Shown here piece by piece: positions 3,720 through 57,316 of a stretch of 64,000 bases of DNA; the stretch's first letter is position 1, and every line of letters begins with the position of its first letter. Origin of the DNA: a bacterium (GTDB lineage Bacteria; UBA10199; 2-02-FULL-50-16; JAJFLM01); NCBI GenBank assembly GCA_965216315.1, contig CBDCFN010000016.1, positions 1,600,001-1,664,000 of the forward strand, in the 5' to 3' direction. Under the pieces are notes generated by a model. The model did no database searches, was not told the DNA's origin, and worked only from the letters and a program-made list of their open reading frames with translations. The translations under genes were made by a program, and so were the position numbers.

Positions 3720-3808
3720 GGAGGGCGCTGACTAACACGCGTTCGCCAAGCTGTCAAATGGAGGGGTATTGACAAAGCCCTGCTTTTCAGTGCAGAAAGA
3801 CCCCTTCG

Positions 3809-8354: not shown

Positions 8355-8371
8355 AAATTACTCCTGAAATG

Positions 8372-8923: not shown

Positions 8924-8949
8924 AAGGCCACATTATATAGCATCTTCAC

Positions 8950-10847: not shown

Positions 10848-10895
10848 TAAGCCCCTGATAACCAACAAAAATTTGCGAATCTTTGCGAAAATTAG

Positions 10896-10920
10896 CAACT
10901 TTCAGGCTCCCGCCGCGATA
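10896..10920 (+). promoter_or_regulatory. CAAC-N16-CGATA promoter-like motif (copy A)
   Basis: Same spacing as copies at 39956, 41906 and 57099; shares AAAATTAGCAACTTT with copy B. Confidence 0.65.
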
Positions 10921-10948
10921 AATTAGCTGCGTATTGGAGGTGTGTGCG

Positions 10949-25908: not shown

Positions 25909-26013
25909 GGCCCAACGTAATCGGTTGTGAACGAGGATCGGATTCATTCCGTCCGAGTGGAACCCTATTCGGGGTTTGGGGGTGTTGGGCGCAGCACACA
26001 CCCCCATTATGAA

Positions 26014-26058
26014 GTTGGACTTGGGATGGCAAGCGCGACGATTATTGAGAGGGTGTAG
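26014..26058 (+). repeat. Synonymously recoded duplicate of the thiolase last 14 codons plus stop
   Basis: Encodes VGLGMASATIIERV*, same as 25864-25908, with 9 silent nucleotide differences. Confidence 0.9.
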
Positions 26059-29000
26059 CAGCGGATCGAAGCCGTTCATAGGCCTCACTTTCGTACCAAC
26101 TCTTTAACTCTTGCGTGATGACACCGCGGATGCGATCGGCAGAGACCACCGCTGTAAAAGAGCCATCGGCCTCCGCGCGCTCTAAGGTACTCATCCACCC
26201 AATCACGGTATCAACCATTTTTTCAGCCAATATACCCGCTTCCGATTCAGGCCGCCCTTGTTCAATCAGAATATGGGTCATCTGCCGCACCGTCGCCTTG
26301 TAAAATCCAATCCCCTTCCAACCCTTGGCATCCAATACCGCTTCATAAGAAGAAGGATCCGCGTAGACCTTAATATGACCTGCATCGGCTAGCGTTTCCA
26401 GTTTACGGAGATCAACCTCAGTCCCATCTTCTAACGGAACCTTCAATTTCATCCCCAATTCTTTCGCTACCGTGACCTTCATACCGCCTAGTACTTTCTT
26501 ACGTGGGCCAGCCCAAAGATAGACAGGGGCGGGATGATTGACAATGGCCGATAACAACCGCGCCCCATTCTGACCACTACCCGCCACCGACCGCGGATCA
26601 TATCCCGACGCCGCCAAATCACCGACAATGGGCACCCAGGGAAAGTGTTGGGTCATGAACTCGATAAAGCTGGCTAAGTCACCCGCCCCGCGCGGACTCA
26701 GTGTCATCGGTGGATTCCAGTTGAGGTCCTTTCTTGTCAGCTTATTGCCATCCGCATCATAAACTTCGCGGTCAATGTACTGAATGTCGCCCGCTTCATC
26801 CCGGGGAAATTCCATGATCATCTGGGCGCCAACGCCGGCGACGGGAAAGCCGCTCATGCGTGCCATCCCGGCGATGGCATAATGATCCGTGTCAGAAATG
26901 CGATTAAAGGTCCCGGCATCAAAAAGGGCTTCCAACTCGTCGGCCACATCATAGTTGCCACTCTGGGGATCAACCGGCAGACCAAGCTCCTTTCGTTCTT
27001 GATTCACGCGCGTTACGGACGCCTCAATACGGGCATTGATGTCATTTGATCCACGCGGCGTGAAAGGTCTCACCTCTGAAACGATTTCACTCAGCTGCTC
27101 CCAGCTATAAGGTTGTGTAATATCGGGTATGGTTTGGTTGGCCGGGTCGTCCAAGCCCTTTAACACGGCAAGCAAGGCATCCACTTCCGAATGAGCGACT
27201 TGAGTCGTCAGGCCTTCGGCCTTCATGCGGTTGGCCCCGCCTAATTCGATGGTATCGAAGAAGAGTGCCTGTCCGAATATATTGTTAATCGCATCGGCTC
27301 CCGTCAGCAACATGACAGCGCCATCTAATAAGGCACGCTCCGCCGCGCTCATTTCGTCTTCCCGAAGCTCGTTGTTCGGATCGCCTCGCTGAATGCGCAT
27401 GGCACGTGCCAGGATGTAAAGGTACATCCCGATGCCAACTACGGTCACGCGATTGCGGCCGCGCCCTTTCCCTCCCAGCACCGCACTAAACGTCGGAACT
27501 TCTGCAGCCGCTCGGGCCATCGCGCCCGCAGTCAAACCCGATCCCAATAAACTTTTTTGATTCACGCCACCTTGCAACAAACTACAGGGCCGAAAATTGG
27601 ATTGACCCTCCGCTCCTTCCCAATCTCCTTTAAAGACCTCCTGCCATGACGCTGCACCCAAGGCACGAACGACGGCCTCGACCTGCTTCGCCGTCAGATA
27701 AATATCCTCGCCAGTCTCATCACTGCTCAAACGCGCAGGCTGACCCGGATGACGCGGAATCAGCGCGTGAGGCAGGGCCATTTGCGCGCCGGGAGTTTCC
27801 GCCAAATAAATCGGCGGATACCCCTGTTGCCGGGCATATTCCATCGCCAGCCAAAAAAACTTGGCACTTTCAATATCAACCGCGGCTCTTTTGGCCACAG
27901 GATGAGTTGGGTCGTTCCCAATCACCACGCAAGTGATCCCTTCCGGGTGGTTCGGAAGTTTCAATCTCACCTGAAAAGCCGCTACCCCGGTCGGATTAAG
28001 CCCAGCGGGACGCCGGCCAATCCGAAAAAGGCCTTCATCATCGATATACATCTCTCGAATCGCATCCATGTCGAGTGGCGGCGCCGGTGATCCGACATCT
28101 TCCCATAATTTTTCATAGGCCTCGGGTAAAAGCCTTTGCACACGGTCATAAACAAACACCCCACCTAGATTTTTCGCCAAAGTCCGCCGTTTATCGATTG
28201 GAGATTTATCCTCCATTTGTTCTTCGGCATCACGGTAATCATCATCCGGGCTTAAATGAATATTACCCGTACGAAGCATGCGTTCTAATACATTGCGCCG
28301 AACCAAAACCCAACGTCTTCCACTGGGTGTCTCCGCCGAGACAATATACCGTACACTGACGAGGGGTGAACCGATATCAGTATCACTTATAAAGGTCAGG
28401 GCAGTTACACGTCGTGGCGGCATTCTCTCATCTAAGCTCACTTCAAGGCGGGCCTGAATCACAAGTTGTTCTAAATCGATGCCCGCTCGATCATAGGAAG
28501 ATTCTCTCGCAAAGGCGGCCATTAATTCTTCCCAGACAGCAGGAGTTTGATACTGAACACCTTCGACATAGATTCTCATGCGTTGCCATTGAGAAACTTC
28601 ACCCGTCTCCAACTGACGGTGCAATTCCTCACTCATGCGGCGATGGCGCCTCAACAGTCCGGGCATTCGGCCGTGCTTAGACACCAAGGCATCATCCGGG
28701 GCCAGTAAATACGAAGCCATATAAAGAGATGTTTGGTCGGACTGACTGCTATGGAGACGCAAGATCAACGCCGTTTTCACCTCAAAAGGCTGCACATAAT
28801 CAATGTGCCGGTAGTTGCCCAGACGTTGCAATCCGTAGCGATGCCCAAAGGCCGGATCGATCCCGAGCAATGCGGGATCTACCGCAAATGAGCGCTCGCC
28901 GGGCAATGTAATATGGTAACCCAAGCGAAATTTTTCCTGATCATAGCGCACCCGGTTACGTAGAGTAACGTATTGAGGCCTGTTACCCCGTCCCCGATCA

Positions 29001-32000
29001 ATCACAAAAGTCAGGCGCCACACTCGATCACGAATGGAATCCCATTCCGGTGATTCAACAATACTATTAAACACGTTGTTTAAATGTGCCGCGCGGTCTT
29101 GAATAGGATCTTCTCGACTTGTCGGACCGCGCGCCATCCTGACGGATCCAGAAAAAATCTTATCCGGTACGATAATTTTTATCGTCCTATCATCGCTAAT
29201 GGTCCGGCTATCATCCTTTACTTGTGCGAGTATCGTGCGATACGCGTCTTCGAGAGTTTCCCGGTGAACAATATAATGATAGTGGCATTGGGCGTAACGT
29301 CTATCCCCTTCGACGCGCTTCATATCCTTGACAACAGCGCGACGCAGCTTCGGTGATAGCTGAACGACTTCCGGAATATCATAACCTCGCGCCTCCATCG
29401 GGCGCAGAAACTCTATTTCCGCAGCGAGGTCCTGCACTTCGGGTGTCCAGCGCGTATGCGGCCTCAAGAAGCGCAATAACCGCCCGAGCATGGGATAGGG
29501 AGATCGTGATGTAACGCGAATCAGGGCCTGGCGTTCCGGATCACCTGGATTACGCTGCGCCGCCTCTTCAAATGTCGCGATAAATTGTTGTTCGATGAAA
29601 CGTCGAAACGGACCGCGCGCCAATGGAGCCAACGCAACTAGGTCCTCGACAATCTGCGCCATCGTTCGTGCACTATCTGCATCATAGCGCGGCAAAGCGA
29701 GCACAAAGCCCTCCGCTTTATCTCCCTGGACATAAAGTCGACGTCTCTGTTGTGACTCCAGCACCCCAACCCGCATACCCGCTGTATCGTGGCTTAAAAA
29801 ATGTCCTTCGAGAAGATGTCGTGACCCAAGAGGAAGCTGTCGTGGTTGAAAGGATACCGACTCGACTCGGCGACCACTGTAGTCGAGTAGTTGCAAATGG
29901 AGATTGCGATTTTCTTTCGCGGCACGTTCGACCTTGAGATGGAATAAAAGAGGTACGCTCGCATCCTGCTCTCCATCAAGCCCGCGCCACAAGGGAAACA
30001 AAGTCGCAACCGGCTGCCCATGCTCATACAAGACGACATTATCAATATTAATACGCCCATCGACTTCCGTGATGACAGGCCATACCTCAAACTTCTTGCG
30101 CAAAGCCCGTATGCCGAAAAGTCGATGCCAACGGCCCCGCTGACTCGCTAAAGCATGTGCAAGAGGTCCCGAAGCGATTGAGTCATCTCCACGTAAGAGC
30201 CGTTGATATAATGCAACAGCGCCATCGTCACCGTCTATGACGGTCAAGACCGTATTCCTGAAGCCACTCTGTTCCGGACTCACGACAAACCGATTATCCT
30301 CGTCCGCCCTCGGCGGAAAGCGCTCCATAAGTCCTGCACGTTGGTGGCCCTGTTCTAATAAAACCGGAATCGTTCTGATCAGAGCCAAGCGCTCCGGATC
30401 CAGCAGCGCCCTAAGCTCAGCATCTTGATGAAACGTCTCAAAACGTTGGGGGACAGATTCGGGAAGATTATCCGGTAGCTGCGTCACCCAATCATCATAT
30501 AGTTTGCTTTGCCTGAATGAATCGATCTGACTGAGTGTTCCGCGTAAAGTCACTGCATCGTTGGCATCAACGTCTCGCAACGTCTCATGGAAACGCCACG
30601 GTTTCAGGGCAAAAACCCAGCGTAACAGATGACGCCAAACATATTTGAGGCCCTCTCGTTCTTGCCGACTGGTAGAATTCTGATACTCCTTATCTATTGC
30701 CATCATCTCGGTGACGACATGTGGCAGGGCTTGCACGAGCGCCGCAAGAGCTTGAGGCGTGTGCTCGCGTTGCGCTCGTTCAACGATGCCCACAAGACGG
30801 GTTCGATTGAGTCCCCTCTCCAGGAGAGCCGGCATATCCACTCCCCAACGAACGTGGCTTCGTACCATACGTTCTGCGGCACTACTGCGGCCACTCCGAA
30901 ATGGCGTTGTTGTACCGCGACGATGCGTCAGCCACATAAAACTGATCGGATAAGTCAGGCCATCGAGCTCTGCATAGAGTTCTTTTGAAAACACCCCACC
31001 CTGCGCTTGGTTTGCTTCAGTAATCCGCTGCATGACGTCTTGCTGAACCGCTGCAGCGACGACAGCGCGAATCAACGAATTAACTTCACTGAACTGATGC
31101 GGTGGCTGAAAAAATTCACTCAAACGTCGTTCATGGAGTTGTAAGACTTGGGCATCCCAACGAAAGCTAACGGCGGGTCGAGCTTCCATCTTAATCGGCT
31201 CATCGCGCGAATCTATTGTCATCAATTCTGTGTAAAGGGCCTTCCCCTCCCAAATGATCTGAAGCGTCATCTCTCCAAGATCATCACAATCTGGAGCTGA
31301 TAACGCACGACCGTAATGCGACCACTCAGCAACGAACTCTGGCCAGGCCATTGCTTTCAATTGCTCAACATCATTCTTCGCGATAAGCCCTCTAAGATAG
31401 CGTTGGACCGCGTGAGCGGCATAGAGACGCACCAATAAATCGCAGCGAGTGACCTGTTTGGGTAATTGAAAGAAGAGCTTGAGGCGCTCTTGGCCAAGAG
31501 GATGCGGTCCAAAGTCATAGGGGCCGAGTCGCGGCAACAGGTGGTCTCCATTGAGCCATGTGTCGGCACCCTGAGTGAGGCGAACAACATAACTCTCTTC
31601 AGCCTCACTTGACCCTGTCTCTGCAGCGATTTCCGGATAGATAAAGGAAGGAACAATCGCACGTCGGGCTCGTGCGAGCTGACCGATAATAGCAACATAT
31701 GTTTTCCCATACTGCGGTGATGTTTCAGCCTGAACCAGCTGAATTGATAAAGCGCTCGCCTCCCGCGCCGCAGCGCGAACCGTGTCGACATCAATAGCAC
31801 GGTCGATACATCCTAATTGTAAGTTAACGAGCGGTAAGAGCTGTCGATTAAATTCATTGGCTTGAGTTATCGAGAAGGACTCACCGTGGAGGAGTGATTC
31901 GGCACGATCAAGGCGGGCGATGAGTTGCGGTCGATGAAGTGTAGCGAGACTCGCACTCGCTAGTTGAAGCGAACCTGATGACAGCCCCTGCAAAGCCTGA

Positions 32001-32017
32001 ATGGAATACAGGCTCAT
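26042..32017 (-). CDS. 1991-aa protein: novel N-terminal region plus divergent eukaryotic-ACC-type carboxyltransferase domain; no BC or BCCP recognised
   Basis: From ~28200: KRR...VYD, PAGLNPTGVAAF, VVIGND, EYARQQGYP.IYLA, LLGSGLTAG, VGIGMYL, LLTGADAIN..FG, ELGG, LFDAGTF, G.ARMSG.P. Confidence 0.75.
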   Translation of the reverse strand: MSLYSIQALQGLSSGSLQLASASLATLHRPQLIARLDRAESLLHGESFSITQANEFNRQLLPLVNLQLGCIDRAIDVDTVRAAAREASALSIQLVQAETSPQYGKTYVAIIGQLARARRAIVPSFIYPEIAAETGSSEAEESYVVRLTQGADTWLNGDHLLPRLGPYDFGPHPLGQERLKLFFQLPKQVTRCDLLVRLYAAHAVQRYLRGLIAKNDVEQLKAMAWPEFVAEWSHYGRALSAPDCDDLGEMTLQIIWEGKALYTELMTIDSRDEPIKMEARPAVSFRWDAQVLQLHERRLSEFFQPPHQFSEVNSLIRAVVAAAVQQDVMQRITEANQAQGGVFSKELYAELDGLTYPISFMWLTHRRGTTTPFRSGRSSAAERMVRSHVRWGVDMPALLERGLNRTRLVGIVERAQREHTPQALAALVQALPHVVTEMMAIDKEYQNSTSRQEREGLKYVWRHLLRWVFALKPWRFHETLRDVDANDAVTLRGTLSQIDSFRQSKLYDDWVTQLPDNLPESVPQRFETFHQDAELRALLDPERLALIRTIPVLLEQGHQRAGLMERFPPRADEDNRFVVSPEQSGFRNTVLTVIDGDDGAVALYQRLLRGDDSIASGPLAHALASQRGRWHRLFGIRALRKKFEVWPVITEVDGRINIDNVVLYEHGQPVATLFPLWRGLDGEQDASVPLLFHLKVERAAKENRNLHLQLLDYSGRRVESVSFQPRQLPLGSRHLLEGHFLSHDTAGMRVGVLESQQRRRLYVQGDKAEGFVLALPRYDADSARTMAQIVEDLVALAPLARGPFRRFIEQQFIATFEEAAQRNPGDPERQALIRVTSRSPYPMLGRLLRFLRPHTRWTPEVQDLAAEIEFLRPMEARGYDIPEVVQLSPKLRRAVVKDMKRVEGDRRYAQCHYHYIVHRETLEDAYRTILAQVKDDSRTISDDRTIKIIVPDKIFSGSVRMARGPTSREDPIQDRAAHLNNVFNSIVESPEWDSIRDRVWRLTFVIDRGRGNRPQYVTLRNRVRYDQEKFRLGYHITLPGERSFAVDPALLGIDPAFGHRYGLQRLGNYRHIDYVQPFEVKTALILRLHSSQSDQTSLYMASYLLAPDDALVSKHGRMPGLLRRHRRMSEELHRQLETGEVSQWQRMRIYVEGVQYQTPAVWEELMAAFARESSYDRAGIDLEQLVIQARLEVSLDERMPPRRVTALTFISDTDIGSPLVSVRYIVSAETPSGRRWVLVRRNVLERMLRTGNIHLSPDDDYRDAEEQMEDKSPIDKRRTLAKNLGGVFVYDRVQRLLPEAYEKLWEDVGSPAPPLDMDAIREMYIDDEGLFRIGRRPAGLNPTGVAAFQVRLKLPNHPEGITCVVIGNDPTHPVAKRAAVDIESAKFFWLAMEYARQQGYPPIYLAETPGAQMALPHALIPRHPGQPARLSSDETGEDIYLTAKQVEAVVRALGAASWQEVFKGDWEGAEGQSNFRPCSLLQGGVNQKSLLGSGLTAGAMARAAAEVPTFSAVLGGKGRGRNRVTVVGIGMYLYILARAMRIQRGDPNNELREDEMSAAERALLDGAVMLLTGADAINNIFGQALFFDTIELGGANRMKAEGLTTQVAHSEVDALLAVLKGLDDPANQTIPDITQPYSWEQLSEIVSEVRPFTPRGSNDINARIEASVTRVNQERKELGLPVDPQSGNYDVADELEALFDAGTFNRISDTDHYAIAGMARMSGFPVAGVGAQMIMEFPRDEAGDIQYIDREVYDADGNKLTRKDLNWNPPMTLSPRGAGDLASFIEFMTQHFPWVPIVGDLAASGYDPRSVAGSGQNGARLLSAIVNHPAPVYLWAGPRKKVLGGMKVTVAKELGMKLKVPLEDGTEVDLRKLETLADAGHIKVYADPSSYEAVLDAKGWKGIGFYKATVRQMTHILIEQGRPESEAGILAEKMVDTVIGWMSTLERAEADGSFTAVVSADRIRGVITQELKSWYESEAYERLRSAATPSQ

Positions 32018-32041
32018 CCCTCACCCCGATCTTTGTTGAGC

Positions 32042-32070
32042 TAAGGGGGAGAAACGTTCTCTCCCCCTTA
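32042..32070. other. Intergenic hairpin between the two giant carboxylase genes
   Basis: TAAGGGGGAGA-N7-TCTCCCCCTTA, no U-tract. Confidence 0.6.
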
Positions 32071-32120
32071 ACCACCCTCCTCGCCTTGTGACCACTCCAA
32101 CCCCAGAGCGGCCGAAAAAA

Positions 32121-35100
32121 CTATTTGCGCTCCGGCGGTCTCGAGGCCCTGTCCAGTTCGACCGTTCCGCTTGTAATGACCTCAATCTTACCTTTGGCCT
32201 CCAGCAACAGCGAACCATCAGGAGACACATCACGTACAATCCCGGAGGCCGTAATCTCGTCACCATTCATTATATGAACCCGCTTATCTTTTAAATAAGA
32301 GCGTCCGCGGACATAGCTTACAATATCCGGCCACCCACCTTCGTTAAGGCGTTGCATTTCGCTTTCTAAGGCTTCCAGGAGACGTTTCAAGACCATTGCT
32401 TGATCCCAACTCTTGCCGGTATCAATGGCAAGCGAGGTCGCAGGTTTACCGATACCACTAAGATCTTCAACGGTCGCATTCGTATTCAGGCCAATTCCGA
32501 CCACGAAGGCTCCGTCACCGTGCTGTTCAATCAAAATTCCCGCCAGTTTAGCATCGCGCAGATAAATATCGTTAGGCCACTTGATAGTCGGTTGTGAATC
32601 CGAAATAGCTCCAACCGCCCTAGCAACGGCGGCAGCCGTAGCAAAGGTCATCTTAGGTATCACATTTTTTTCGACGGACGGCCTTATCGCGACGGACATG
32701 TAAATACCGGCTCCTTTGCGCGAAACCCAAGTATTACCCGTACGTCCCCGCCCGGCCTTTTGTTGATCAGCAATAACAACCGTCCCTAACATGACATTCT
32801 GATCCAATAACGCCTTCGCAACATCATTGGTTGATCCCACCGATTCGAAAGCAAAAATGCTACGCCCGATCCGACCTGCAGCAATACCCAAATCAAGCGA
32901 CCGAAACCCCTCACCAAGAGTTTTGATAGCGTCAATATCAATACTATCCGCATCTTTCACTGGTCTAGGGGACTCTACCAGAGGCTTATCAACCGCAACC
33001 GCTCTCGGGACAGGTCTCTCCGGACTTTCGCTGCGGGGCGTGTCTTGACGTCTAGTCAAAATGAAGGGGCCGAGCCCCATGCTTTTGACGGCCTTCTCCC
33101 ACTGCTCAACTCCGGCATCCCCCATCGCGGCAAACGTTGTAAATGAATTTAGCCAAACATCGATCTGCGCGTCAACCTGAGCCCGATAGACTTCGCGCCC
33201 TTCATTTAAATTGCGGATATACCAGGGGCGGATTTGATTCGCCGGCACAACTTCATGAATGGCCCCAACGGCCACAGCCTTATCGACAGTGTGGATCCCG
33301 TCATATTCAAGTCGGAAACTTTCTTCCACCTCATCACGGGCCGCGCGTCTAATCTTTTCAATATCTTGAGGAGATGTTACTTTTTGCAGTCGTAACTGCC
33401 AAGACGAATCCGTCTTTAGTAATTCCTCGGCAGCCGCATTAATTTTGCGGGGGAAAATCAACTTTGTAGCGATGTTGCCTCCGATCACGGAAGCAAATGT
33501 ATTATCAACCGCTCCAACCGTAGCGTTGTCATTGATCACCCGCGAAAAGACAACATAAGCGCCACCATGGTAACGTGTCGTCACCAAGAAAGCGAGCTTG
33601 CCTTTATAATTCCGAACCGCCTCCTCAATTGCCGTGCCCCATTCCAATTGATTATTCATCAGTGATTCGGGACTACCATCAAAACCCGAGAGATTAGCGA
33701 CGACAACCAAATCGGTACGGCCACTCGCCGCGTTAATTGCACGCGCAACTTTTTTAGATCCTTCCGGAAACAGCGTCGATCCACTCCAACTATCAGGATA
33801 CCCTGGTGGAATCTCACCCTCACGTGGGAGGCTCTGCGCATCAATACCGATCATCGTCGTGGGGATACCTCCAATCGCCGTTTCTTCGACGCGAATCAGA
33901 TCAGCCCCGCCTTTTTTCCAGAGATGCCAGCGCTGTAACACAGGAGCATCCTGATCGCGGATTGATGCCATTACGGCAGCCACTGGAAACGGCTTCTTTT
34001 TTTCCTTATCCGCGAGGATCTCGCCAATGTCATAGACAGTTATCGTGGGAATGCTCGCCAGTTCCTCTAGCCTATTCAAGATCTTTCCCATCTCAGTCGC
34101 GTCTGCAGAACTAATGCCTTCATCAGACTCCGCTTGAAGTTCCAAGGCCTCCAGCGCCTTCTCTAATTGTTCTTTCTCTGCCGCTCTTGCCGCCTGTTCT
34201 GCCAGCACCTCTTCCGCTGATTTATCCGTTAAGGCCGGATCGACATAACGGTACTTCGTTACATCCCGACCATGGTGGTCGGATGTTTCCCATTGATCAA
34301 CAAGTATCTGACCCGGTGCATGCCAGGTCAAATCATGATGTTGCCAAAGCAGGCGCCTGCCCTCCGAGATCGTCTCAACGTAAAATTGGGTTTCACCAAT
34401 CGGTCCTGTCACCCGTTCCGCCCCGGCGAGACCAAGATTATCTTCGGCACCGACAGATCCCGAAATCATCTGGGCACGATTCCCGGTCAGGGCTGTATAG
34501 GAATTAGCGGCCTTAATCAGGACACCACGGCGGGTCATCTCCATCGTCGCGTTGGCATCCCAATAAGACTGGGCCCCGATGTTGCCTCCATCAACGAGGA
34601 TATTTACGACCCCGCCCGCATCACAAAACTCACCAAGACGTCTCATGACGAGAGCTGTCCAGTCCAGATTCTCAACACCCTTATCCATCGAAATACCGGC
34701 ACCACTTGAGGTGGCTTTCCAATCGATCTCAAGTCCGTGTTTTTCAGCATAATCAATGGCGGCAATGATGCGCGCACATTCAGGCTCTTGAAGCGGACAG
34801 AGTCCATAAGTCGCGTCATTGACTATTTGCATGATACGAATCCCCTCGGGATGTCGCTGTGTCGGCCGTTTCAATTCACCAAAAACGACCTTACCGGTGT
34901 TATTCCCCCGTTCCCGATTGACCTCAATGAGATCGTACGTGGCTCGATGTTCTCCGGTCTGCTCATCCTTAATCAAACGCGGGTTTTCAATATCCAGTTC
35001 ATGAAATTCTCCGCGCCCGTAGCCTTCATCGGCTGTCAGGTCTTGAACATATTGATAGGCCTCAACCAACCCAAGGCCCTCATTGCGCGCGACGCGCATT

Positions 35101-38100
35101 TTATAGGCACTACGCGGTTTGACGTAACCCTCTGGTTTACCCAAGGGCTTGACCGCTTTCATCTTCAGTCCTGTACCGCCGGGATTGCGAATCCGAAATA
35201 GCATATCTTGAAAAGGTTGATCTTCGGACGGTCGCCACCGCATCAAGCGCACGTTCGTTTCTTCGATCTGCATGCCGCGGATGCGCGGCGCAAGCCGCGC
35301 AATTGCACGCTTCATCTGGTCCGGAGTGGCCGTCACTTCGGCCCGTATCAACATATGGATGCGGTGTGCCGCCCAACCCTCTTGAGACTCGGACCGAATC
35401 GAGTGAATTGCCTGTCCAAAGGCCAAATCAATTTCGGGATAGCGCAGCGTTCCATTCCCATCACTTTGGGGGGACAAATGGCGGACAATCGAATAGGCAA
35501 AGAGCCGACGATCGGGTTTTTTCTTCTTCCCCGATGGATCTTTTTCAGTCAACTTAAAGAGGTGATTCCATTCCCACGGTGTCTGCGAGCGTTCCACCTC
35601 CCAATGTCGCCGCAATCGCCAGAGCTCTAATTGAGCCGCCCGATAGGGGTGAATCCCTCTAAAGAGTACGTCTTCAACAAACATCCCCTGGCGTTCCAAG
35701 TCAGGTCGATACGTCAGATAGAACGTTCCCGCTTCACCCATGACAAAGGTCAACGTAATCCGCTTAATTTGGCGATTGGGATCGACAAAGCCAATCAGCG
35801 AAGGAATACGCTCTGCAAGCCGCTCAATATCTCTCATGTCGCCGGTCAATTCCGGAATAATAAGCTCCAGCGTATTGTCGACCGTCTCCTGGGCACCCAG
35901 ATCGGTCGCTCCACGGTGAAAATCTTCCAGGCTCTTGATCCCCCGCTTGATTAAGTTTTTGATTCCATTCTGTCCCAAGGGATCACGGCCGGCAGAGAGA
36001 CCAACCACCGCACGCCTGACCCCGGATTCCTGATCCTTAAAAATCCCGAAAGAATAAAGATCCTGTTCTTTCACATTCAAAGTATGCGCTTCGATGTTGT
36101 GACGATCGCCATAGAGCCGCTGAAAACGGATCGCCGCGGCGATTTCGGCTGCCTCCGCATCATTTCCAAGGATGTGATCGATAATTCCTAAAATCGTAGC
36201 ATCTGCCAGCGACGAAACTTCCTTAATCACTCCCCGCCGTTCAGCGGAGCCCGCCCGGAATCCTTTGGCTTTTTTGATAAGCTCAGCAACTCGTTGGTCG
36301 GCATCGTCACGACTGACCTTGCCTAACTCCGATTCGTTGAGTGTAAAAAGGAGCCCTTGAGCGGCATGCGTCAGCTTTACGACATCACGGTCGAGATGAT
36401 TGAATTTTTCTAATGTCGCCACGAGTTTGCCTTGAGGCCCTCTCAAGGCACCCGCGTCCCACAAGGACTGCAACCAATCGAATACCCGCAGCATTAACAT
36501 CTGGCGAATTTTCGTTTCTTCGCGGGCGATCCGCATTCTGACTAAGGCACGGTCAAGGCCTTCCGAGGGTTCATCGATGGAACTCACGCCGTGGTGGCTC
36601 AAGGCCTGAGACAAAATGGCTCCAAAAGCAGGATCGGAGACCTGACGCGTTTGAATAAAATCATCAAATTGATCGAATAATGAGCGCTTCTCAACGCTTC
36701 CCCTTAAGGCATGGCGCTGAAACAACATCTCAACGTCAATGAAGGCATCGAGAATCTTAACCGCTTCTTCAGCGATGAGTTCATCTCCAACGTCTTGATT
36801 GACCGCATGTCCTAAAGCGTCGAAAATTCCCTGGGCATAGGGGCTTAATTCATCTTGCCGCTCGAAACCCTTAGGAACGGAGGTATAGAGTCGCTGCAAC
36901 GGATCATAGTTGAGACTGGCATCGCGCAATAAAGCCGTCATCTCCCGGTAGCTTTCAGGAAAGTTGCCTACAATGTTTACGATGCCTGCCGCAAAATCTT
37001 CTGTTCCCGGAGCTACGTGAAAGAGTTGCTGCACTTCCGTCTCTCCCGTCGGCCTGAATTCAAGCTGAGGGGCCTCAGGAGGAGGACGATCATCCGGTTC
37101 CTTGATGCGGACGAGTAATTTGCCTTGGAGCACGGCAGCATTTTCAGAAACCAAGTATTCTTCGAGTATGCCGGGGACCTGCGCCTTCAGCGGTTGTTCG
37201 ATCTTCATAACCTCTAGAACGGCAATAACATCACCCACGTTGACAACATCACCCGGCTTTTTCTCATACCGAAGTACGGTTCCATTTTGGGTCGCGCGCA
37301 CTTCTCCGACAGGAGGATTATCGACAGTAAACGCGACTCCATTGACAGAAATTGGATAAGCGCCTTGTTTCTCCGATCCAATGATGGGAACGCGCTTGCC
37401 ATCAATCGTCATGTTAAACTCGGAACCGCTGGGCCCCTTCGTCTCCAAGTCAACTGTGTAGTCGCGACCATTAATACTCACTAAATAGTCGCCTGACCTT
37501 TCACTGACAGAAAGCCTATATTCGCGGCCAAACAGGGCAAATACAAATTCCGCTTCTTTGCGGGGCGGCAACTTCGGCAGACGTCCCTTGCGCAAGGTCG
37601 CAAGCACACCATTATCATATGCACTGCGCTGTTTACGGTAGGCGAGAATCGCCGCAGCCACGAGTGCTTCATGAGAGTACTGTTTGACTTCCCAAGGCTT
37701 GCGCATCGGCATGTAGTGGTCCTGGAGCCATTTATTTGAATAGGCAATGTCACCAAATACCTGATGTCCCATCACCTCGATGGCAAAGCCACGCATCGTG
37801 CGCACGCCGTCAACGGCGAGATCCGTCAAGCCACGCATGGTGACCGCGCGCGCTGAATTGCGGTCGCGACCTTTTCCGATCAATTTAAGGAGCGTCGGAT
37901 CATATCCCGCGGTAATGACATCTCCCTGACGTACCGCGACGTCGGCACGTATGCCTTTGCCCGTGGGCGGCCGAAACAATTTAAGGGTTCCACTGGTTGC
38001 GGCAAACTCCTCATCGGCATCCTGGGCATAGATGCGCACCTCAAAGGCCGTTCCTCTGGGTTCCGGAGTCGATTTCACGGACAAACGATAGCCTTCCGCA

Positions 38101-39887
38101 ACCCGAATCTGTTCTTTCACCATATCAACGCCGGTAACTTCTTCGGTAATCGTGTGTTCGACTTGGAGGCGGGCATTGATCTCCATCGGATAAAAGTCCA
38201 TCCCGTCATAGAGACCTTCAAAGGTCGCAGCCCCGATGTAATCCGCTTCATGGAGCACGCGGACCGCATGTTGATGCATGCCTTGACGTTGACCGTTAGG
38301 AATATTCGGCGCCGGCGCCTCTTCGATGATCTTCTTGTTCTTCCATTGAATGGAACAGTCACGATCACCGACGGCAACACAATTGCCATGTTGATCTCGA
38401 ATCAGCTGAATCTCAACATGCCGCGGTGCAATGAGTTTGTTGACATAAACCGAGGCATCATCGTCATTGTCGATGGCTTTACGTTGGATATATTCGAAGG
38501 CCTGCATGAACTCGCGACGATCATAAAGAAAGACGATATGTTCATGTGGATTGTCGCTGGCTTTTAGCTGCTCTTCCGATAAATGGGACAGCACCAGCGG
38601 ATAACCTAGTTCATTCGCAACCGCCTCACCCTGTGACTGTGTCGCCACTTTATGCCACGGCTCATCCGACGGTCTCGGCAAGATAGCCTTTTCGATAAAG
38701 ACGGTGGGATTACCAAAGGCACGCAGTGCTCCCGCCTGTGCCTTTGAAAAGGCATCTCTCAACTCCGCTTCGTTGTGCACAAAGTAGATTCCTTCACCAC
38801 CGCCTCCCGCTGTGGCCTTAATCACGACAGGATATCCCAACCGCTCTGCAACCTGAATTGCCTGCTCAAGCGTATCCGCCTCACCCCAGGTTAATTGATC
38901 CGGATCGGCCAGCCGTTTGAAACCAATCTTATCACCAACTAATTCCATCGCCGACTTGCGAGGGCCGAGAAAGCGAGAGCCAAGCTCAGTCACCAACGCC
39001 GAAAGCTCCGGATTCTCCGAGGCAAAGCCCCAACCGGGCCACACTCCGATGTCGTTAGCCGAAAGCCCTTCCGCCTCCGCTTGTCTAATCACCTGCTCCA
39101 AGGCTTCGCGCAGGATGACATCAACATCGTTGTAGGCAAGGAGCTTCTTGGTCTTATCGGGATCATCATCCGTCGGATCCGGCACATCGCGACTATCCGG
39201 CACAAGTATCGCTTGATCCGCGTCGACCACAAACGGAGCCCCGGCATCCGCCTGCGTATACATGACGATCACTTCGATTTTTTCACCGCGTTCACGTTCC
39301 AACTCACGAACCGCGGTAATCAGACGCGAAGCCGCCTCACCCCGATTGGGTACAAAGATCTTCCGTAAATGACTTACCTCCGGCTCAACCGTTTCACCCG
39401 GGTCCGCATTCAACTGAACCGCCGCTATGACATTAAGTGGAGCCGGCTCGCCCACAACTGCCGACGTGCCAGCCATTGCAGACGTATCGACGACTGTATG
39501 ACTCCCGGCAAGGGCTTCCGGAGACAAAGCCGCCCTCATTTCCATTAACTTCTCTTCAATGAGCTGTTGAAGTAGGGGTGATTGATCGGATGCCTTCCCT
39601 TCTGTCGCCAGTTCATGCCCATGGTCGAGTACTTCTATCGCTCGAGCGCGAATGACAGCCGCATCAGTTTCTGGATGGAGCTGATCCGCTGTCAGCGAAG
39701 TCAACGGTTGAAGATGGCCGCGGAATGTATCTAAGCCGCGTTGCAAATAAGGATCATCTTGCAGAAGCGTTTGTGTCGACTGAATGTTGTTGAGTATTTG
39801 CGGCTCTTGAAGAACACCGGAGGCCGCTAAGATTCCGGTAGAAGTGAGCGACAATGAGGAGGTCGCTCCGATGGTAAATAGACCCAT
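32121..39887 (-). CDS. 2588-aa single-chain acyl-CoA carboxylase (N-domain-BC-BCCP-central-CT) fused to C-terminal BirA-type biotin ligase
   Basis: NRGEAA, PGWGFASEN, KATAGGGG, RDCSIQ, EINARLQVEH (BC); EVMKIE (biotin Lys ~37204); CT motifs ANLSGFDGSPES, YHGGAYVVFS; BirA STND, QKAGRGR, KWPND, KLAGILIE, GIGLN. Confidence 0.9.
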   Translation of the reverse strand: MGLFTIGATSSLSLTSTGILAASGVLQEPQILNNIQSTQTLLQDDPYLQRGLDTFRGHLQPLTSLTADQLHPETDAAVIRARAIEVLDHGHELATEGKASDQSPLLQQLIEEKLMEMRAALSPEALAGSHTVVDTSAMAGTSAVVGEPAPLNVIAAVQLNADPGETVEPEVSHLRKIFVPNRGEAASRLITAVRELERERGEKIEVIVMYTQADAGAPFVVDADQAILVPDSRDVPDPTDDDPDKTKKLLAYNDVDVILREALEQVIRQAEAEGLSANDIGVWPGWGFASENPELSALVTELGSRFLGPRKSAMELVGDKIGFKRLADPDQLTWGEADTLEQAIQVAERLGYPVVIKATAGGGGEGIYFVHNEAELRDAFSKAQAGALRAFGNPTVFIEKAILPRPSDEPWHKVATQSQGEAVANELGYPLVLSHLSEEQLKASDNPHEHIVFLYDRREFMQAFEYIQRKAIDNDDDASVYVNKLIAPRHVEIQLIRDQHGNCVAVGDRDCSIQWKNKKIIEEAPAPNIPNGQRQGMHQHAVRVLHEADYIGAATFEGLYDGMDFYPMEINARLQVEHTITEEVTGVDMVKEQIRVAEGYRLSVKSTPEPRGTAFEVRIYAQDADEEFAATSGTLKLFRPPTGKGIRADVAVRQGDVITAGYDPTLLKLIGKGRDRNSARAVTMRGLTDLAVDGVRTMRGFAIEVMGHQVFGDIAYSNKWLQDHYMPMRKPWEVKQYSHEALVAAAILAYRKQRSAYDNGVLATLRKGRLPKLPPRKEAEFVFALFGREYRLSVSERSGDYLVSINGRDYTVDLETKGPSGSEFNMTIDGKRVPIIGSEKQGAYPISVNGVAFTVDNPPVGEVRATQNGTVLRYEKKPGDVVNVGDVIAVLEVMKIEQPLKAQVPGILEEYLVSENAAVLQGKLLVRIKEPDDRPPPEAPQLEFRPTGETEVQQLFHVAPGTEDFAAGIVNIVGNFPESYREMTALLRDASLNYDPLQRLYTSVPKGFERQDELSPYAQGIFDALGHAVNQDVGDELIAEEAVKILDAFIDVEMLFQRHALRGSVEKRSLFDQFDDFIQTRQVSDPAFGAILSQALSHHGVSSIDEPSEGLDRALVRMRIAREETKIRQMLMLRVFDWLQSLWDAGALRGPQGKLVATLEKFNHLDRDVVKLTHAAQGLLFTLNESELGKVSRDDADQRVAELIKKAKGFRAGSAERRGVIKEVSSLADATILGIIDHILGNDAEAAEIAAAIRFQRLYGDRHNIEAHTLNVKEQDLYSFGIFKDQESGVRRAVVGLSAGRDPLGQNGIKNLIKRGIKSLEDFHRGATDLGAQETVDNTLELIIPELTGDMRDIERLAERIPSLIGFVDPNRQIKRITLTFVMGEAGTFYLTYRPDLERQGMFVEDVLFRGIHPYRAAQLELWRLRRHWEVERSQTPWEWNHLFKLTEKDPSGKKKKPDRRLFAYSIVRHLSPQSDGNGTLRYPEIDLAFGQAIHSIRSESQEGWAAHRIHMLIRAEVTATPDQMKRAIARLAPRIRGMQIEETNVRLMRWRPSEDQPFQDMLFRIRNPGGTGLKMKAVKPLGKPEGYVKPRSAYKMRVARNEGLGLVEAYQYVQDLTADEGYGRGEFHELDIENPRLIKDEQTGEHRATYDLIEVNRERGNNTGKVVFGELKRPTQRHPEGIRIMQIVNDATYGLCPLQEPECARIIAAIDYAEKHGLEIDWKATSSGAGISMDKGVENLDWTALVMRRLGEFCDAGGVVNILVDGGNIGAQSYWDANATMEMTRRGVLIKAANSYTALTGNRAQMISGSVGAEDNLGLAGAERVTGPIGETQFYVETISEGRRLLWQHHDLTWHAPGQILVDQWETSDHHGRDVTKYRYVDPALTDKSAEEVLAEQAARAAEKEQLEKALEALELQAESDEGISSADATEMGKILNRLEELASIPTITVYDIGEILADKEKKKPFPVAAVMASIRDQDAPVLQRWHLWKKGGADLIRVEETAIGGIPTTMIGIDAQSLPREGEIPPGYPDSWSGSTLFPEGSKKVARAINAASGRTDLVVVANLSGFDGSPESLMNNQLEWGTAIEEAVRNYKGKLAFLVTTRYHGGAYVVFSRVINDNATVGAVDNTFASVIGGNIATKLIFPRKINAAAEELLKTDSSWQLRLQKVTSPQDIEKIRRAARDEVEESFRLEYDGIHTVDKAVAVGAIHEVVPANQIRPWYIRNLNEGREVYRAQVDAQIDVWLNSFTTFAAMGDAGVEQWEKAVKSMGLGPFILTRRQDTPRSESPERPVPRAVAVDKPLVESPRPVKDADSIDIDAIKTLGEGFRSLDLGIAAGRIGRSIFAFESVGSTNDVAKALLDQNVMLGTVVIADQQKAGRGRTGNTWVSRKGAGIYMSVAIRPSVEKNVIPKMTFATAAAVARAVGAISDSQPTIKWPNDIYLRDAKLAGILIEQHGDGAFVVGIGLNTNATVEDLSGIGKPATSLAIDTGKSWDQAMVLKRLLEALESEMQRLNEGGWPDIVSYVRGRSYLKDKRVHIMNGDEITASGIVRDVSPDGSLLLEAKGKIEVITSGTVELDRASRPPERK

Positions 39888-39955
39888 GCCTGAAAACCCC
39901 AGACCTTTCGAATGTAACGATCCTCCCCATGAGGAGGCCCTCGACGCAGTTCTTT

Positions 39956-39980
39956 GTTCGGACTCAAGGGGTAAAAGTTG
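39956..39980 (-). promoter_or_regulatory. CAAC-N16-CGAAC promoter-like motif (copy B)
   Basis: Same spacing as other copies; IHF consensus TATCAATTAGTTA at 40032-40020. Confidence 0.65.
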
Positions 39981-40049
39981 CTAATTTTTTCGAAATCGAA
40001 ACGGCGAAGATAGTAAGTTTAACTAATTGATATAATTAAATTTATGCTG

Positions 40050-41882
40050 CTATTCGGTCACGATGTTGTCGAGGCGGTCGAGGGCCTTGATGACAACCTC
40101 CCGCAAGATCGCATTGTGGGCCTTATAGGGGGCCCGCGGGACGCTCCGCAAGAACACGATGCGGGCGGGTGCCAATCCCTTGACCCCGGGCCCGGCAACA
40201 TTTTCCATATGTCTGAGCAGCTCAACCTCGGTATACCGAGCCCCCCGGGCGAGCACAACGGCAGCGACAACCATTTCTCCCAGTTTCTTGTCCGGGATTC
40301 CAACGACGTGACAATCCTGAATTCCCGACATCCCACGCATATGATTTTCAATCGTCCGTGGAAAGACGGCCTGGCCATTGGTCACGATCTTTTCGATCGA
40401 GCGCCCAAGTACCGTAAGGAAGCCGTCCTCATCCAACTTACCGAAGTCATCGCCCTCACGGAATCGCCCATCGGTCAGTGCGTTCTTGACGTAGATCGTC
40501 CCGACTTGACCCGGACCCAGGATCGTACCGCCCTGGTCGCGAATCTGAATCTCAACTCCCGGTGCGGGGCGCCCCACGGTCTCTTTATGGGCGAGTAATT
40601 GATCCGGTCTAAGGACGGTTACCAAACCAAATTCCGTCGTCGCATAATTTTCCCAGATGATGGGCCCGAACACGCCGACAGCAAGCTCCTTCAATGAAGG
40701 ATGAAACGGAGCCGCTCCGACGTAAATGGCCCGCAACGAATCAAGTTTATAATCGTGGTGAGAATCGGCAACAAACATACACAAGCTTTTCAACCAATGC
40801 GGCGAGGTCCAAAAGTTGGTGAGTTGATGGTTATCAATCAAATCTAAAGTCGCTTCCGGATCAAAGGCGAGGCTCGGGGTTTCATCGAGCATCACCATTG
40901 CCCCGCGATTGAGATGTCCCTTCGCCCAGGAGTGCGCACCGCCATGATAGAGTTGGCCCACAACGAGGTTTTTGTCTCTTTCAGTAATTTGAAACAGGCG
41001 GTTCGCCTTGCGTCCGACGTTCGCATCGCGCTTAACACGGACTAGCTTGGGCTCACCGGTCGTTCCCGAACTCATCATCACGGGACCCGGATACTCAGGC
41101 GCAACCATATCCGCACTCGCGGCTGGCGGTCGTTTAAATTCTTTAATGATACTTCGGTAGTGAAGAACGTTCGGATACTTGTTATCAATGTCGACCACAA
41201 TCGTTCCCATCGCCTCAAGCAAGGGAAGATAGAGTTCGATATGCAGTAAACTTTCATGATCGAGAAACAACACGCGATACGGCTGAGCCCGTAGTTTCTC
41301 CATGATCTGATCGCGTGATAGATAAGAATGAAAATTGGTGTACGCCACACCGGCACGCTTGGCTCCAATATTGATCGAGAAATGTTCAACGCGATTCCGA
41401 CTGAAGAAGATGGCGACTTGTTGATCATCCGAGTCACGACAACCCGCAATGAAGCGACCGAGGATATCCGCATGGGCGTCCAACGTCCCATAGGTTAACC
41501 CTTCCGTGCCTTGTCGCACTGCCACACGCTGTCCCCAACTAAAGGCATTTTGCGCAATCGGATCGGTTCGATTGATCGGACCCGGCGTCATCCGACTCGT
41601 CAGGTCGCTCAATACACCACGAATTTGCTCGCGGGTCGGTATGCTGAGCAGCGTCGGCAACGTATAACTCCCTAAAAAGGGATGGACTATCTGGGACTCG
41701 TGACCGCGCCAGTAGAGATCCTGGACGTCTTCCCAGATTTCTCCGTCGGTGAGCTGATCATCCGAGTGCATGTGCCGTTCGATTTGCGCAAGCTCCTCCG
41801 TAAAGGCCGCGACGTTGAAAGTCCCGCGGCTGGCACAGAGCATAGGGGCAACCATGAGCTGGGTCGCCAAATTGGATGACAT
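40050..41882 (-). CDS. Divergent AMP-binding acyl-CoA synthetase with ~100-aa N-terminal extension
   Basis: SSGTTGEPK, YATTE, TVGRP, LDEDGFL.V.GR; start moved to MSSNL (41882) because the upstream ATG lies inside the promoter motif. Confidence 0.8.
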   Translation of the reverse strand: MSSNLATQLMVAPMLCASRGTFNVAAFTEELAQIERHMHSDDQLTDGEIWEDVQDLYWRGHESQIVHPFLGSYTLPTLLSIPTREQIRGVLSDLTSRMTPGPINRTDPIAQNAFSWGQRVAVRQGTEGLTYGTLDAHADILGRFIAGCRDSDDQQVAIFFSRNRVEHFSINIGAKRAGVAYTNFHSYLSRDQIMEKLRAQPYRVLFLDHESLLHIELYLPLLEAMGTIVVDIDNKYPNVLHYRSIIKEFKRPPAASADMVAPEYPGPVMMSSGTTGEPKLVRVKRDANVGRKANRLFQITERDKNLVVGQLYHGGAHSWAKGHLNRGAMVMLDETPSLAFDPEATLDLIDNHQLTNFWTSPHWLKSLCMFVADSHHDYKLDSLRAIYVGAAPFHPSLKELAVGVFGPIIWENYATTEFGLVTVLRPDQLLAHKETVGRPAPGVEIQIRDQGGTILGPGQVGTIYVKNALTDGRFREGDDFGKLDEDGFLTVLGRSIEKIVTNGQAVFPRTIENHMRGMSGIQDCHVVGIPDKKLGEMVVAAVVLARGARYTEVELLRHMENVAGPGVKGLAPARIVFLRSVPRAPYKAHNAILREVVIKALDRLDNIVTE

Positions 41883-41905
41883 GAGACCTGTAAACACAGT
41901 GGGCT

Positions 41906-41930
41906 CATCGCACATTTTCGGAAAAAGTTG
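41906..41930 (-). promoter_or_regulatory. CAAC-N16-CGATG promoter-like motif (copy C)
   Basis: CAACTTTTTCCGAAAATGTGCGATG, 23 nt before ATG 41882. Confidence 0.6.
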
Positions 41931-42032
41931 TTTATTTCTTAGGGGTTATCTTCGAATCCTTGCGAAAGAATCGCCGGTTGAGGCTTCGCGATAGATCTGC
42001 TAAGGACTCGATTCACATAAGGAGCTAAGTTC

Positions 42033-42413
42033 ATGAAAAAGATATTCATTCTCGGTGCCGGCCTCATTCTCGCGACCGGCCTCTCTGCTTGCCAGAAATC
42101 AACGGATCCAGCCAAATCAGAGCCGACTTCCACCCTAGAATCAACGAGTTCGGGAGACAAAATCTCCGGCGAGGCCTTCAGCGGTGATTATGTCACGGTC
42201 CTGTGCCGCAAATACAAAGAATGTGGCATCAATGCCTTTAAAACGGATAAGGATTGTCACAATCGTATCAAGGCGGTTCTCGACAAGGATGCCAAATGGC
42301 AAGAGCTCAACTTGGACAAGTCAGCGCTAGCCACGTGCTTAAAGGACTTTAAGGACTTCTCGTGCGACAATTTTAAGGCAGGCAAGGCCCCGGATAGCTG
42401 TCAAAAGCTCTAG
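42033..42413 (+). CDS. Small Cys-rich lipoprotein
   Basis: AAGGAG RBS; lipobox LSAC; six further Cys. Confidence 0.8.
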   Translation: MKKIFILGAGLILATGLSACQKSTDPAKSEPTSTLESTSSGDKISGEAFSGDYVTVLCRKYKECGINAFKTDKDCHNRIKAVLDKDAKWQELNLDKSALATCLKDFKDFSCDNFKAGKAPDSCQKL

Positions 42414-42495
42414 GATATTGTTTTTCCTTGCGTATTTTGGGGTTAACTCGATATAAGGCCCCCGCCTTTTTCATTAATTTATAAGGAGATCTTCA

Positions 42496-44502: not shown

Positions 44503-44509
44503 TTTTATT

Positions 44510-44537
44510 GTAGGGGCGACCGGCCGGTCGCCCCTAC
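44510..44537. repeat. Perfect 28-bp GTAG-type REP palindrome between convergent genes
   Basis: GTAGGGGCGACCGGCCGGTCGCCCCTAC; supplies the permease stop codon. Confidence 0.85.
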
Positions 44538-45835: not shown

Positions 45836-45865
45836 TGCGCTAGACCCTATCTCAGGAGGAAAGCA

Positions 45866-46288
45866 ATGTCGATTGAACAAATTACCCCTACGATTGCTAA
45901 AGAAATGCTCGATAAAGATGCGGACACCATCTACTTAGACGTCCGTTCCATCCCTGAATTTACTCAAGGTCACGCTGAAGGAGCCATTAATATCCCTCTC
46001 CTCCACCTCAATGAACAAAGTGGCACGATGGAGCCCAACCAAGACTTCGCCAAGGTCGCCCAGGCCGTTCTTCCTCCGGAAAAAACTTACGTCGTTGGTT
46101 GCAAAATGGGAGGCCGCTCCCAAAAGGCCTGCGAACTGCTCACTATGCTGGGTTACCAGAATCTATTCAACATCGATGGCGGATTTGTCGGCAATGATCA
46201 TCAGCCCGGTTGGCAAGCCGAGGGGCTTCCAACCAGCACCGATAACGGCGAGGGCGTCAGTTACGAATCCTTAGCTGCTAAGGCATAA
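45866..46288 (+). CDS. Single-domain rhodanese
   Basis: AGGAGG RBS; LDVR..EF..GH..GA.NIP; active-site CKMGGRS. Confidence 0.92.
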   Translation: MSIEQITPTIAKEMLDKDADTIYLDVRSIPEFTQGHAEGAINIPLLHLNEQSGTMEPNQDFAKVAQAVLPPEKTYVVGCKMGGRSQKACELLTMLGYQNLFNIDGGFVGNDHQPGWQAEGLPTSTDNGEGVSYESLAAKA

Positions 46289-57123: not shown

Positions 57124-57316
57124 TGGGGTATTTTTGCCTATTTTTTCAGCTACTTAAGAGAGATATCTCGACTCGCAGGCCCACTTTCGCTCCTGCCCCC
57201 AGCTGATTAAAATCATTATATTTTTTAGACTTATCCACAGATCGTTCTCAAATTAATCTGCAACAAAAACGGTTAAATATTTGTCCTTTGATTCAGATAG
57301 CGCTAGTCAGGGGCCC

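Follow-up and report, generated by a model that had tools for sequence, protein, structure and literature searches.

To our knowledge, every biotin enzyme studied so far needs a separate ligase for its activation. Eukaryotic acetyl-CoA carboxylase (ACC), whose carrier swings between the biotin carboxylase (BC) and carboxyltransferase (CT) sites, is biotinylated by a separate holocarboxylase synthetase. In the passage concerned, Lombard and Moreira speak of the ligase as 'an independent protein' (PMC3199775). For the archaeon Methanocella, the relevant part of PMC11237513 reports PycA fused to BirA/Bpl and attributes the fusion to gene colocalisation. Among bacterial enzymes, SACE_4237 of Saccharopolyspora erythraea is described, in the portion of PMC6491548 that deals with it, as an actinobacterial homodimeric multidomain ACC with a central region. 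Here we analyse a 64,000-nucleotide (nt) window of a bacterial genome (contig CBDCFN010000016.1 of assembly GCA_965216315.1, positions 1,600,001 to 1,664,000, hereafter numbered from 1), in which a single gene encodes a 2588-amino-acid (aa) protein that we call P0001. Its source genome is labelled G000, and other P and G numbers denote relatives. P0001 is a real, intact-looking, conserved but rare fusion of a multidomain ACC with a group-I biotin protein ligase. Its parts are the following (BCCP, biotin carboxyl carrier protein).

32121..39887, minus strand: whole open reading frame (ORF) of P0001, 2588 aa, with leader, BC, BCCP, central region, CT, linker and BirA (ORF list, translation, Pfam, NCBIfam).
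39369..39887, minus strand: N-terminal extension, residues 1-173, no known domain.
37722..39368, minus strand: biotin carboxylase domain, residues 174-722 (Pfam Biotin_carb_N, PF00289, residues 174-314, 66.9 bits; CPSase_L_D2, PF02786, in two stretches, 204 bits; Biotin_carb_C, PF02785, residues 616-722, 79.5 bits; PDB phmmer match to MCC alpha 3u9s, 3e-79; motifs).
38430..38678, minus strand: 83 aa (residues 404-486) inserted into the ATP-grasp part of BC (alignment A1; BLASTP of segments).
37104..37307, minus strand: biotinyl carrier domain, residues 861-928 (Pfam Biotin_lipoyl, PF00364, same residues, 44.1 bits; alignment A1).
35181..35777, minus strand: Pfam-matched part of the ACC central region, residues 1371-1569 (ACC_central, PF08326, 41.9 bits, cut-off 23.2).
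33063..34970, minus strand: carboxyltransferase of eukaryote ACC type, about residues 1640-2275 (Pfam Carboxyl_trans, PF01039, residues 1963-2171, C-half only, 45.7 bits, cut-off 22.3; yeast CT 3tv5, E 1.7e-14; motifs).
32883..33062, minus strand: linker rich in Pro, Arg and Asp, predicted disordered, about residues 2276-2335 (composition; AlphaFold pLDDT 43-59 over the first ~40 model residues).
32124..32882, minus strand: group-I biotin protein ligase with C-terminal SH3-like subdomain, residues 2336-2588 (Pfam BPL_LplA_LipB, PF03099, residues 2348-2462, 68.2 bits; BPL_C, PF02237, residues 2535-2578, 23.3 bits; TIGR00121; 2eay match; AlphaFold model; Foldseek).

The 2588-codon frame starts with ATG and contains no internal stop on translation, all of its Pfam domains exceed their family cut-offs, and the GC content of the gene region is the same as that of its flanks. 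An earlier note on this DNA, made from the letters alone, had read it as BC, BCCP, CT and BirA in one polypeptide; the stop-free frame and the Pfam and NCBIfam scores bear this out. The motifs on which that reading relied are all located in P0001 (EVMKIE at residues 892-897, GSTND at 2351-2355, GRGR at 2379-2382, KWPND at 2436-2440 and KLAGILIE at 2447-2454), as is the Pro-rich linker ahead of the ligase (8 Pro among the 70 residues 2271-2340).

The same domain order, BC-BCCP-central-CT, is found in the closest characterised enzyme, SACE_4237, as far as the part of PMC6491548 devoted to it goes. Bacterial single-chain ACCs of ~1860 aa are 28-37% identical to P0001 over the aligned parts; none of the 116 such proteins among our best matches carries PF03099, and P0001 adds to their plan a 173-aa leader, the 83-aa BC insertion, the linker and a 250-aa ligase. 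Eukaryotic ACC (yeast 5csk; human ACC1 CT 4asi) likewise shares the domain order and an EVMK-type carrier motif. Within BC, the motifs NARLQVEH, KKIIEEAP and GGGGEG are present. The 83-aa insertion, confined to P0001 and its sister-strain counterpart P0002 in the six-sequence alignment A1, repeats the preceding segment in degenerate form, minus the Gly-rich loop (BLASTP of the two: 28% identity over 76 aa, E 7e-9). The predicted biotinyl-lysine is K895 of EVMKIE (codon 37203-37205, minus strand), and both M894 and K895 are invariant in 6/6 sequences of A1. The carrier reads LEVMKIEQP and lacks PMPG, whereas the two other biotin carriers of G000 have EAMKME with PMPG; a ligase dedicated to a divergent carrier is plausible on these sequences. 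The non-catalytic middle of the protein spans roughly residues 940-1600, and the PF08326 match within it covers profile positions 497-693 of 726.

The CT region contains SSGAGISM, GGIPTTMIG, SGFDGS and HGGAYVV. Against the yeast ACC CT (3tv5), its C-half aligns, including GGIP, GF.G and GG..VV (residues 1995-2148, 37 bits), whereas the N-half is very divergent (residues 1652-1738, a weak 16.7 bits). The claim that both CT halves are present therefore stands for the C-half, which also exceeds the Pfam cut-off, while the N-half is at most suggested.

The ligase domain looks complete in sequence and in the structural model. The NCBIfam profile TIGR00121 (birA_ligase) scores 168.7 bits on residues 2344-2578 (cut-off 83.1), which cover positions 2-234 of its 235. 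The closest solved ligase by sequence is that of Aquifex (2eay), which aligns end to end (E 1.3e-28). An AlphaFold model of linker plus ligase has a mean pLDDT of 86.5 overall, and Foldseek superposes the modelled ligase on the Pyrococcus horikoshii enzyme (2deq/2e41) with a target TM of 0.93-0.94, an rmsd of 1.7-1.8 Å and E 3e-24. In the model and the Foldseek matches, the C-terminal SH3-like domain is present and a helix-turn-helix domain at the N-terminus is not. The elements Q, G.GR, W, WPND, K, G.L.E and G.G.N do not vary among the 25 aligned ligases, fused ones included. We take the loop GRGRTGNTW (residues 2379-2387) to bind biotin, K2436 of KWPND to be the catalytic lysine, and GIGLNTN to be the adenylate loop of G.G.N type. 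The earlier description of the ligase as intact-looking is thus upheld by the near full-length TIGR00121 match, the retained motifs and the fit of the model to solved ligases. Full-length likeness extends to Aquifex aeolicus 2eay/3efs and P. horikoshii 1wnl/2ejg, which also lack a DNA-binding domain and share GRGR and KWPND (the Aquifex loop reads GRGRLGRKW); unlike them, the ligase of P0001 is the C-terminal domain of its presumed substrate.

The continuity of the frame is corroborated by Logan contigs, which come from four runs of two samples of one study, at a depth of about 3-5, and may include the source sample itself. Across positions 32000-34500 they differ from the window by 0 substitutions and 0 indels. 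The entire interval is covered by one contig, and others cover 32214-34500 and 32792-33283, the latter across the CT-ligase junction. No RNA run was listed among the sequencing runs that hold the sequence. Coverage at this junction had been named in the earlier note as a point to be checked, and no hidden stop is found there.

Five other proteins, 24-45% identical to P0001, have the same architecture. P0003, P0004 and P0005 (2361, 2381 and 2460 aa) are 41-45% identical to it and have PF03099 on record; P0134, a 2381-aa ORF of G031, has a ligase part 39% identical to that of P0001; and P0283, a 2456-aa ORF of G001, is 24% identical. The fusion is therefore conserved but rare. PF03099 occurs in 3 of the best 120 long homologues (of 2794 hits, with 7999 candidates scored), one further entry is the near-identical sister P0002, and the remaining 116 are bacterial single-chain ACCs of 1694-1910 aa devoid of a ligase. 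When a library of 1.84 billion proteins was searched with the ligase domain, the best 150 representatives included a single giant (P0134), the rest being 222-357 aa long. In our set of 93 genomes of the phylum, all of one class, a ligase match lies in a frame of more than 2000 aa in three (G000, G001 and G031), so the architecture is not commonplace. A word-index search with the ligase region among proteins of 1423-4529 aa recovered P0003 and P0283 alone; this search undercounts, because P0004, P0005 and P0134 were missed. A scan of JGI metagenomes with a CT-tail alignment of reference sequences only gave 496 pattern matches and 0 confirmed relatives. A scan of genome contigs with an alignment of the CT end plus ligase and with ligase-motif patterns kept 80 loci, all of them ordinary BirA and none a fused relative. 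A search for the ligase domain among proteins of 455-2000 aa gave 9 matches, none with a carboxylase domain, a weak negative as the fused proteins exceed 2000 aa.

In the full-text literature, exclusive of subscription journals and supplementary files, we found no single-chain ACC with a ligase domain. The earlier statement that no example had been described thus holds for ACC but not for carboxylases at large, since PycA-BirA is in print (PMC11237513, in its treatment of Methanocella). That protein likewise joins a component of a biotin-dependent carboxylase to a ligase. By the same part of PMC11237513, it is archaeal and comprises only the BC subunit of pyruvate carboxylase, with the carrier on another subunit, so that its ligase is not joined to its own acceptor, whereas in P0001 the carrier, the central region and an acyl-CoA-type CT lie between BC and the ligase. 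Other BirA fusions, with type III pantothenate kinase (NCBIfam NF009862; P0129-P0131, with PF03309), QRPTase, SNARE-like or GAF partners, show that the ligase is prone to fusion, but in none of them is the partner a biotin acceptor.

The source genome (2.96 Mb, 98.3% complete) also encodes a stand-alone BirA of 266 aa with the loop GKGRMGRKW and KWPND, as well as biotin synthase (bioB match, 388.9 bits); BioY was not found in it. The supposition that the cell's own ligase might be absent is hence not supported. As to the separate accABCD and birA genes for which the earlier note proposed to look, birA is there and no AccA-family protein was detected in G000, PF03255 giving partial matches inside three PCC-beta-like genes. 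The housekeeping birA (locus L001, 401-1959, minus strand; G000:C16, about 184.6-186.2 kb) shares 10 bases with the beginning of a 255-aa gene, which by its sequence we take to be a type III pantothenate kinase; the two are presumably the pair that is fused in some other bacteria. Among the 93 phylum genomes, two BirA matches are seen only in G000, G001 and G031, and because only genomes with the fusion have two, the fused ligase is an extra copy and appears to be a dedicated one.

Phylogenetic analysis was based on a maximum-likelihood tree of 48 ligase domains and on a quick tree with one more row. The core fused ligases (P0001, P0133, P0134, P0003, P0004, P0005 and the 222-aa fragment P0150) form one clade, supported at 99/84 in the former and 99 in the latter. 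The stand-alone BirA of G000 groups apart from this clade, with those of G002, G010 and G025 (98/91). The fused gene of G031 overlaps at its end with a separate birA, whose product is not sister to the fused domain of the same genome. P0283 of G001 sits on a long branch that joins the fused clade at 62/81 in the maximum-likelihood tree and falls outside it in the quick tree; its CT is of an ordinary PCC-beta-like type. In G075, BC, BT-BCCP, central-CT and BirA are colinear over 7.76 kb (locus L109, G075:C1:119000-134999, at 3188-10950, minus strand), the same span as in G000; CT and BirA share a frame there, with one stop and three codons between them. The BC part of this locus is broken by several frame changes, and its ligase, the only BirA match of that genome, lies on a very long branch in the quick tree; the locus may be a split operon, a pseudogene or the product of an error-prone assembly. 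A convergent thiolase gene adjoins the locus in G000, G031 and G075, and an H+-pyrophosphatase gene is a neighbour in G000 and G001, a sharing that fits descent of one locus. From the second birA of G031, the colinear locus of G075 and the common thiolase neighbour, we infer that a carboxylase gene fused with a birA gene lying just downstream.

Taken together, P0001 is probably a cytoplasmic, eukaryote-type single-chain acyl-CoA carboxylase that has captured a group-I ligase at its C-terminus and biotinylates itself. Self-biotinylation is the most economical reading of the fusion, because no fused relative departs from the Lys of KWPND, the GRGR loop or the acceptor Met-Lys. The tethered ligase would form biotinyl-5'-AMP and pass the biotin to Lys895 of the carrier, either on the same chain or on the partner chain of a dimer; its C-terminal tether beside CT would bring it within the carrier's reach, and the holo-enzyme would arise stoichiometrically, with no need of the housekeeping BirA. 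The activity of the ligase, its action on its own carrier, the dimeric state and the acyl-CoA substrate are here inferred. The proposal that the fusion lets the enzyme activate itself accordingly survives as the best reading of the invariant motifs, but the rationale first given for it, a missing cellular ligase or export of the enzyme, finds no support.

An enzyme tethered to its own ligase would be a system in which to study how one carrier is shared among three active sites (ligase, BC and CT), whether biotinylation proceeds in cis or across the dimer, and how a tether relaxes the ligase's need to retain biotinyl-AMP, a retention that was engineered out of BioID-type tools. The protein might further serve as a practical self-biotinylating carboxylase for heterologous malonyl-CoA production, and the fusion marks an uncultured lineage with unusual lipid metabolism.

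Several observations weigh against self-biotinylation by an active enzyme of this type. In the sister strain, P0002 (93% identical to P0001) ends three residues past the GSTND point of P0001, and the remainder of its ligase, P0133 (228 aa, 92% identical), lies on the same 21,950-nt contig as an ORF of its own. The pattern is that of an apparent one-base frameshift at GSTND with loss of the first ~25 ligase residues; the fused ligase may be dispensable, or the break may be an indel error of that assembly. The Arg of the loop G-R-x-W is replaced by Asn in P0001, by Lys in P0134 and by Ser in P0283. BC carries the 83-aa insertion, which may affect its function, and its Gly-rich loop reads GGGGEG; the N-half of CT is only weakly recognisable. 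The weakly placed ligase of the G001 protein could reflect a further fusion event or else strong divergence. Finally, the source genome has no FabF (best score 18.4 bits) and no KS C-terminal domain, a domain found in 10/10 bacterial control genomes. The enzyme would consequently not feed a conventional type II synthase, and the textbook consumer of malonyl-CoA, a FabF/KS-type condensing enzyme, is missing.

Part of this evidence could be accommodated if the ligase domain were not a working self-ligase but a decaying remnant, or a module sensing biotin or biotinyl-AMP, with the housekeeping BirA biotinylating the carrier. The severed domain of the sister strain, the presence of that BirA, the replacement of the loop Arg by Asn, Lys, Ser or His in fused members, and the status of the ligase as the least conserved part of the protein (39% identity between P0001 and P0134, against 53% for the CT C-half) all favour such a reading. 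It is countered by the invariance of the other catalytic and binding motifs in fused proteins that are 24-45% identical overall, by the confident fold model, and by the severed 228-aa part itself, which has kept 92% identity and shows no further break. Besides, the loop position is Arg in 17/20 aligned stand-alone ligases and H, N or A in the other 3/20, so that its variation is not peculiar to fused domains. We consider a remnant or a sensor unlikely, though worth keeping in mind.

A general role in trans, in which the fused ligase would chiefly serve other biotin enzymes as a second ligase and the fusion would only secure co-expression, commands somewhat less credence and seems to us improbable. 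BirA enzymes generally accept foreign carriers, and at the G075 locus a ligase that is the genome's only BirA match would have to serve all carriers. That locus is broken by frame changes, however, with its ligase on a very long branch, and genomes with an intact fusion have kept a separate BirA. A ligase tethered to a dimeric enzyme of ~570 kDa would, moreover, make a poor diffusing catalyst.

Two genes flank that of P0001 on the same strand, as follows.

26042..32017, minus strand: downstream gene, P0122, 1991 aa, with leader, a ~1200-aa middle part without family and a eukaryote-type CT, and no BC, BCCP or ligase.
40050..41915, minus strand: upstream gene, 621-aa acyl-CoA synthetase (AMP-binding), extended at its N-terminus by ~110 aa (Pfam AMP-binding, 134.6 bits, and AMP-binding_C).

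The first ~85 aa of the leader resemble the N-terminus of P0122 (28% identity over 86 aa, E 2e-4 for a single BLASTP comparison). A start motif, M-[GSA]-[LSP]-[FY]-[TSA]-[IL], is common to P0001, P0122, P0134 and P0283; it occurs in 4/1868 long frames of G000, two of which are P0001 and P0122. A flagellar link considered for one start-motif ORF (C16:360-367 kb) was dropped, as three ORFs there have no Pfam match. No Pfam family matches the N-terminal 175 aa at E<=10.

Export or injection of the carboxylase into a compartment or another cell devoid of biotin ligase, which would explain why it brings its own, was part of the earlier proposal. An unexplained 173-aa extension with a Ser/Thr-rich, uncharged start (its first ~30 residues), a leader start shared with P0122, P0134 and P0283 through a motif so rare among long frames, a single FHIPEP-type export gate in G000 and the lack of FabF-type fatty-acid synthesis, which would fit a lifestyle dependent on others, can be cited for it. 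No Sec/Tat-like signal was detected at the N-terminus, however, by a scoring that did not extend to type III and other secretion signals: residues 1-30 contain neither K nor R, and hydropathy over 19 residues peaks at 1.25. In addition, the leader matches no Pfam family, a 285-kDa enzyme in need of ATP, bicarbonate, CoA esters and biotin would be an unlikely cargo, the gene sits among core metabolic and lipid genes in a stretch of ordinary GC content, and the cell has its own BirA. Export is accordingly not borne out, and we regard it as highly doubtful.

The bin of G000 holds a second strain, because its 8.8-kb contig C10 is a 90%-identical variant of positions 40462-46000 of the window. That the fusion is artefactual, with an error of assembly or sequencing masking a stop or frameshift between two genes, is nonetheless the least probable explanation of all and very unlikely, because, for all the strain heterogeneity of this metagenome-type assembly (contig C10), the low depth of the Logan contigs and the two ORFs of the sister strain, the junction is free of differences in contigs of two samples, the sister break lies not at the CT-ligase junction but ~75 residues beyond it, within the ligase, and the same single frame recurs in five other proteins from other assemblies.

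The genes around that of P0001 encode enolase, cytochrome bc subunits, MiaA, a PlsB-type acyltransferase (GPAT), thiolase and H+-pyrophosphatase. The 621-aa acyl-CoA synthetase matches acyl-CoA ligase families of NCBIfam, all below their cut-offs. Scans for promoters and terminators over 25800-42600 gave counts no higher than those of shuffled sequences and are uninformative on operon structure. Further off in the window are a type III polyketide synthase gene (chalcone-synthase-like; 57281-58366, plus strand), 17 kb away, whose product might, as a conjecture, use malonyl-CoA, and two adjacent squalene/phytoene-synthase-like genes (8950-10847, plus strand).

KS domains are not seen in 56/93 of the phylum genomes, and most of the KS matches in the others belong to giant frames (~1000-6400 aa); ordinary type II fatty-acid synthesis seems to be lacking in the lineage. 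G000 itself has an unusual load of giant proteins, with 29 frames of at least 1500 aa, up to 6227 aa. Two relatives, G020 and G027, encode ACCs of 2431 and 2424 aa that are extended N-terminally by ~540 aa and lack a ligase, and in which no biotinyl domain was detected (loci L022, G020:C83, 2244-18946, and L023, G027:C2, 4365-18084). Beside these are genes for giant KS-containing proteins (1736 and 1784 aa) and, in G020, a MaoC-containing protein of 1081 aa. An N-terminal 'ERDPELFG..LLNLA' module is common to the G020 proteins and recurs in variant form in those of G027.

P0122 has one clear homologue in the phylum (in G077, 38% identity). Its residues 1273-1655 match the human ACC1 CT (4asi, E 4.7e-23), and a search of the ESM Atlas with residues 1-1250 gave no usable match. 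From its sequence, P0122 could be a partner of P0001 or a second carboxyltransferase acting on the same carrier. The leader common to P0001 and P0122, the absence of FabF and the giant lipid enzymes with shared N-terminal modules in G020 and G027 also suggest a more speculative scheme. In it, the carboxylase would work beyond the reach of the housekeeping BirA and the leader would be a docking or targeting tag, which either builds a self-priming megacomplex of two carboxyltransferases with P0122 or brings it into a compartment or a different cell; CO2 would travel on the carrier from one CT site to the other, while the tethered ligase ensured that the complex stayed charged with biotin. We hold this scheme to be a long shot, but if the shared leader and the CT-only neighbour did define a sequestered, self-priming complex, the significance of the fusion would be the greater.

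The thiolase gene and that of P0122 converge, and between their ends is an element of ~88 nt (25924-26010). No part of the window, this element included, has an Rfam match; at least six other copies of the element, 80-89% identical, are present in G000.

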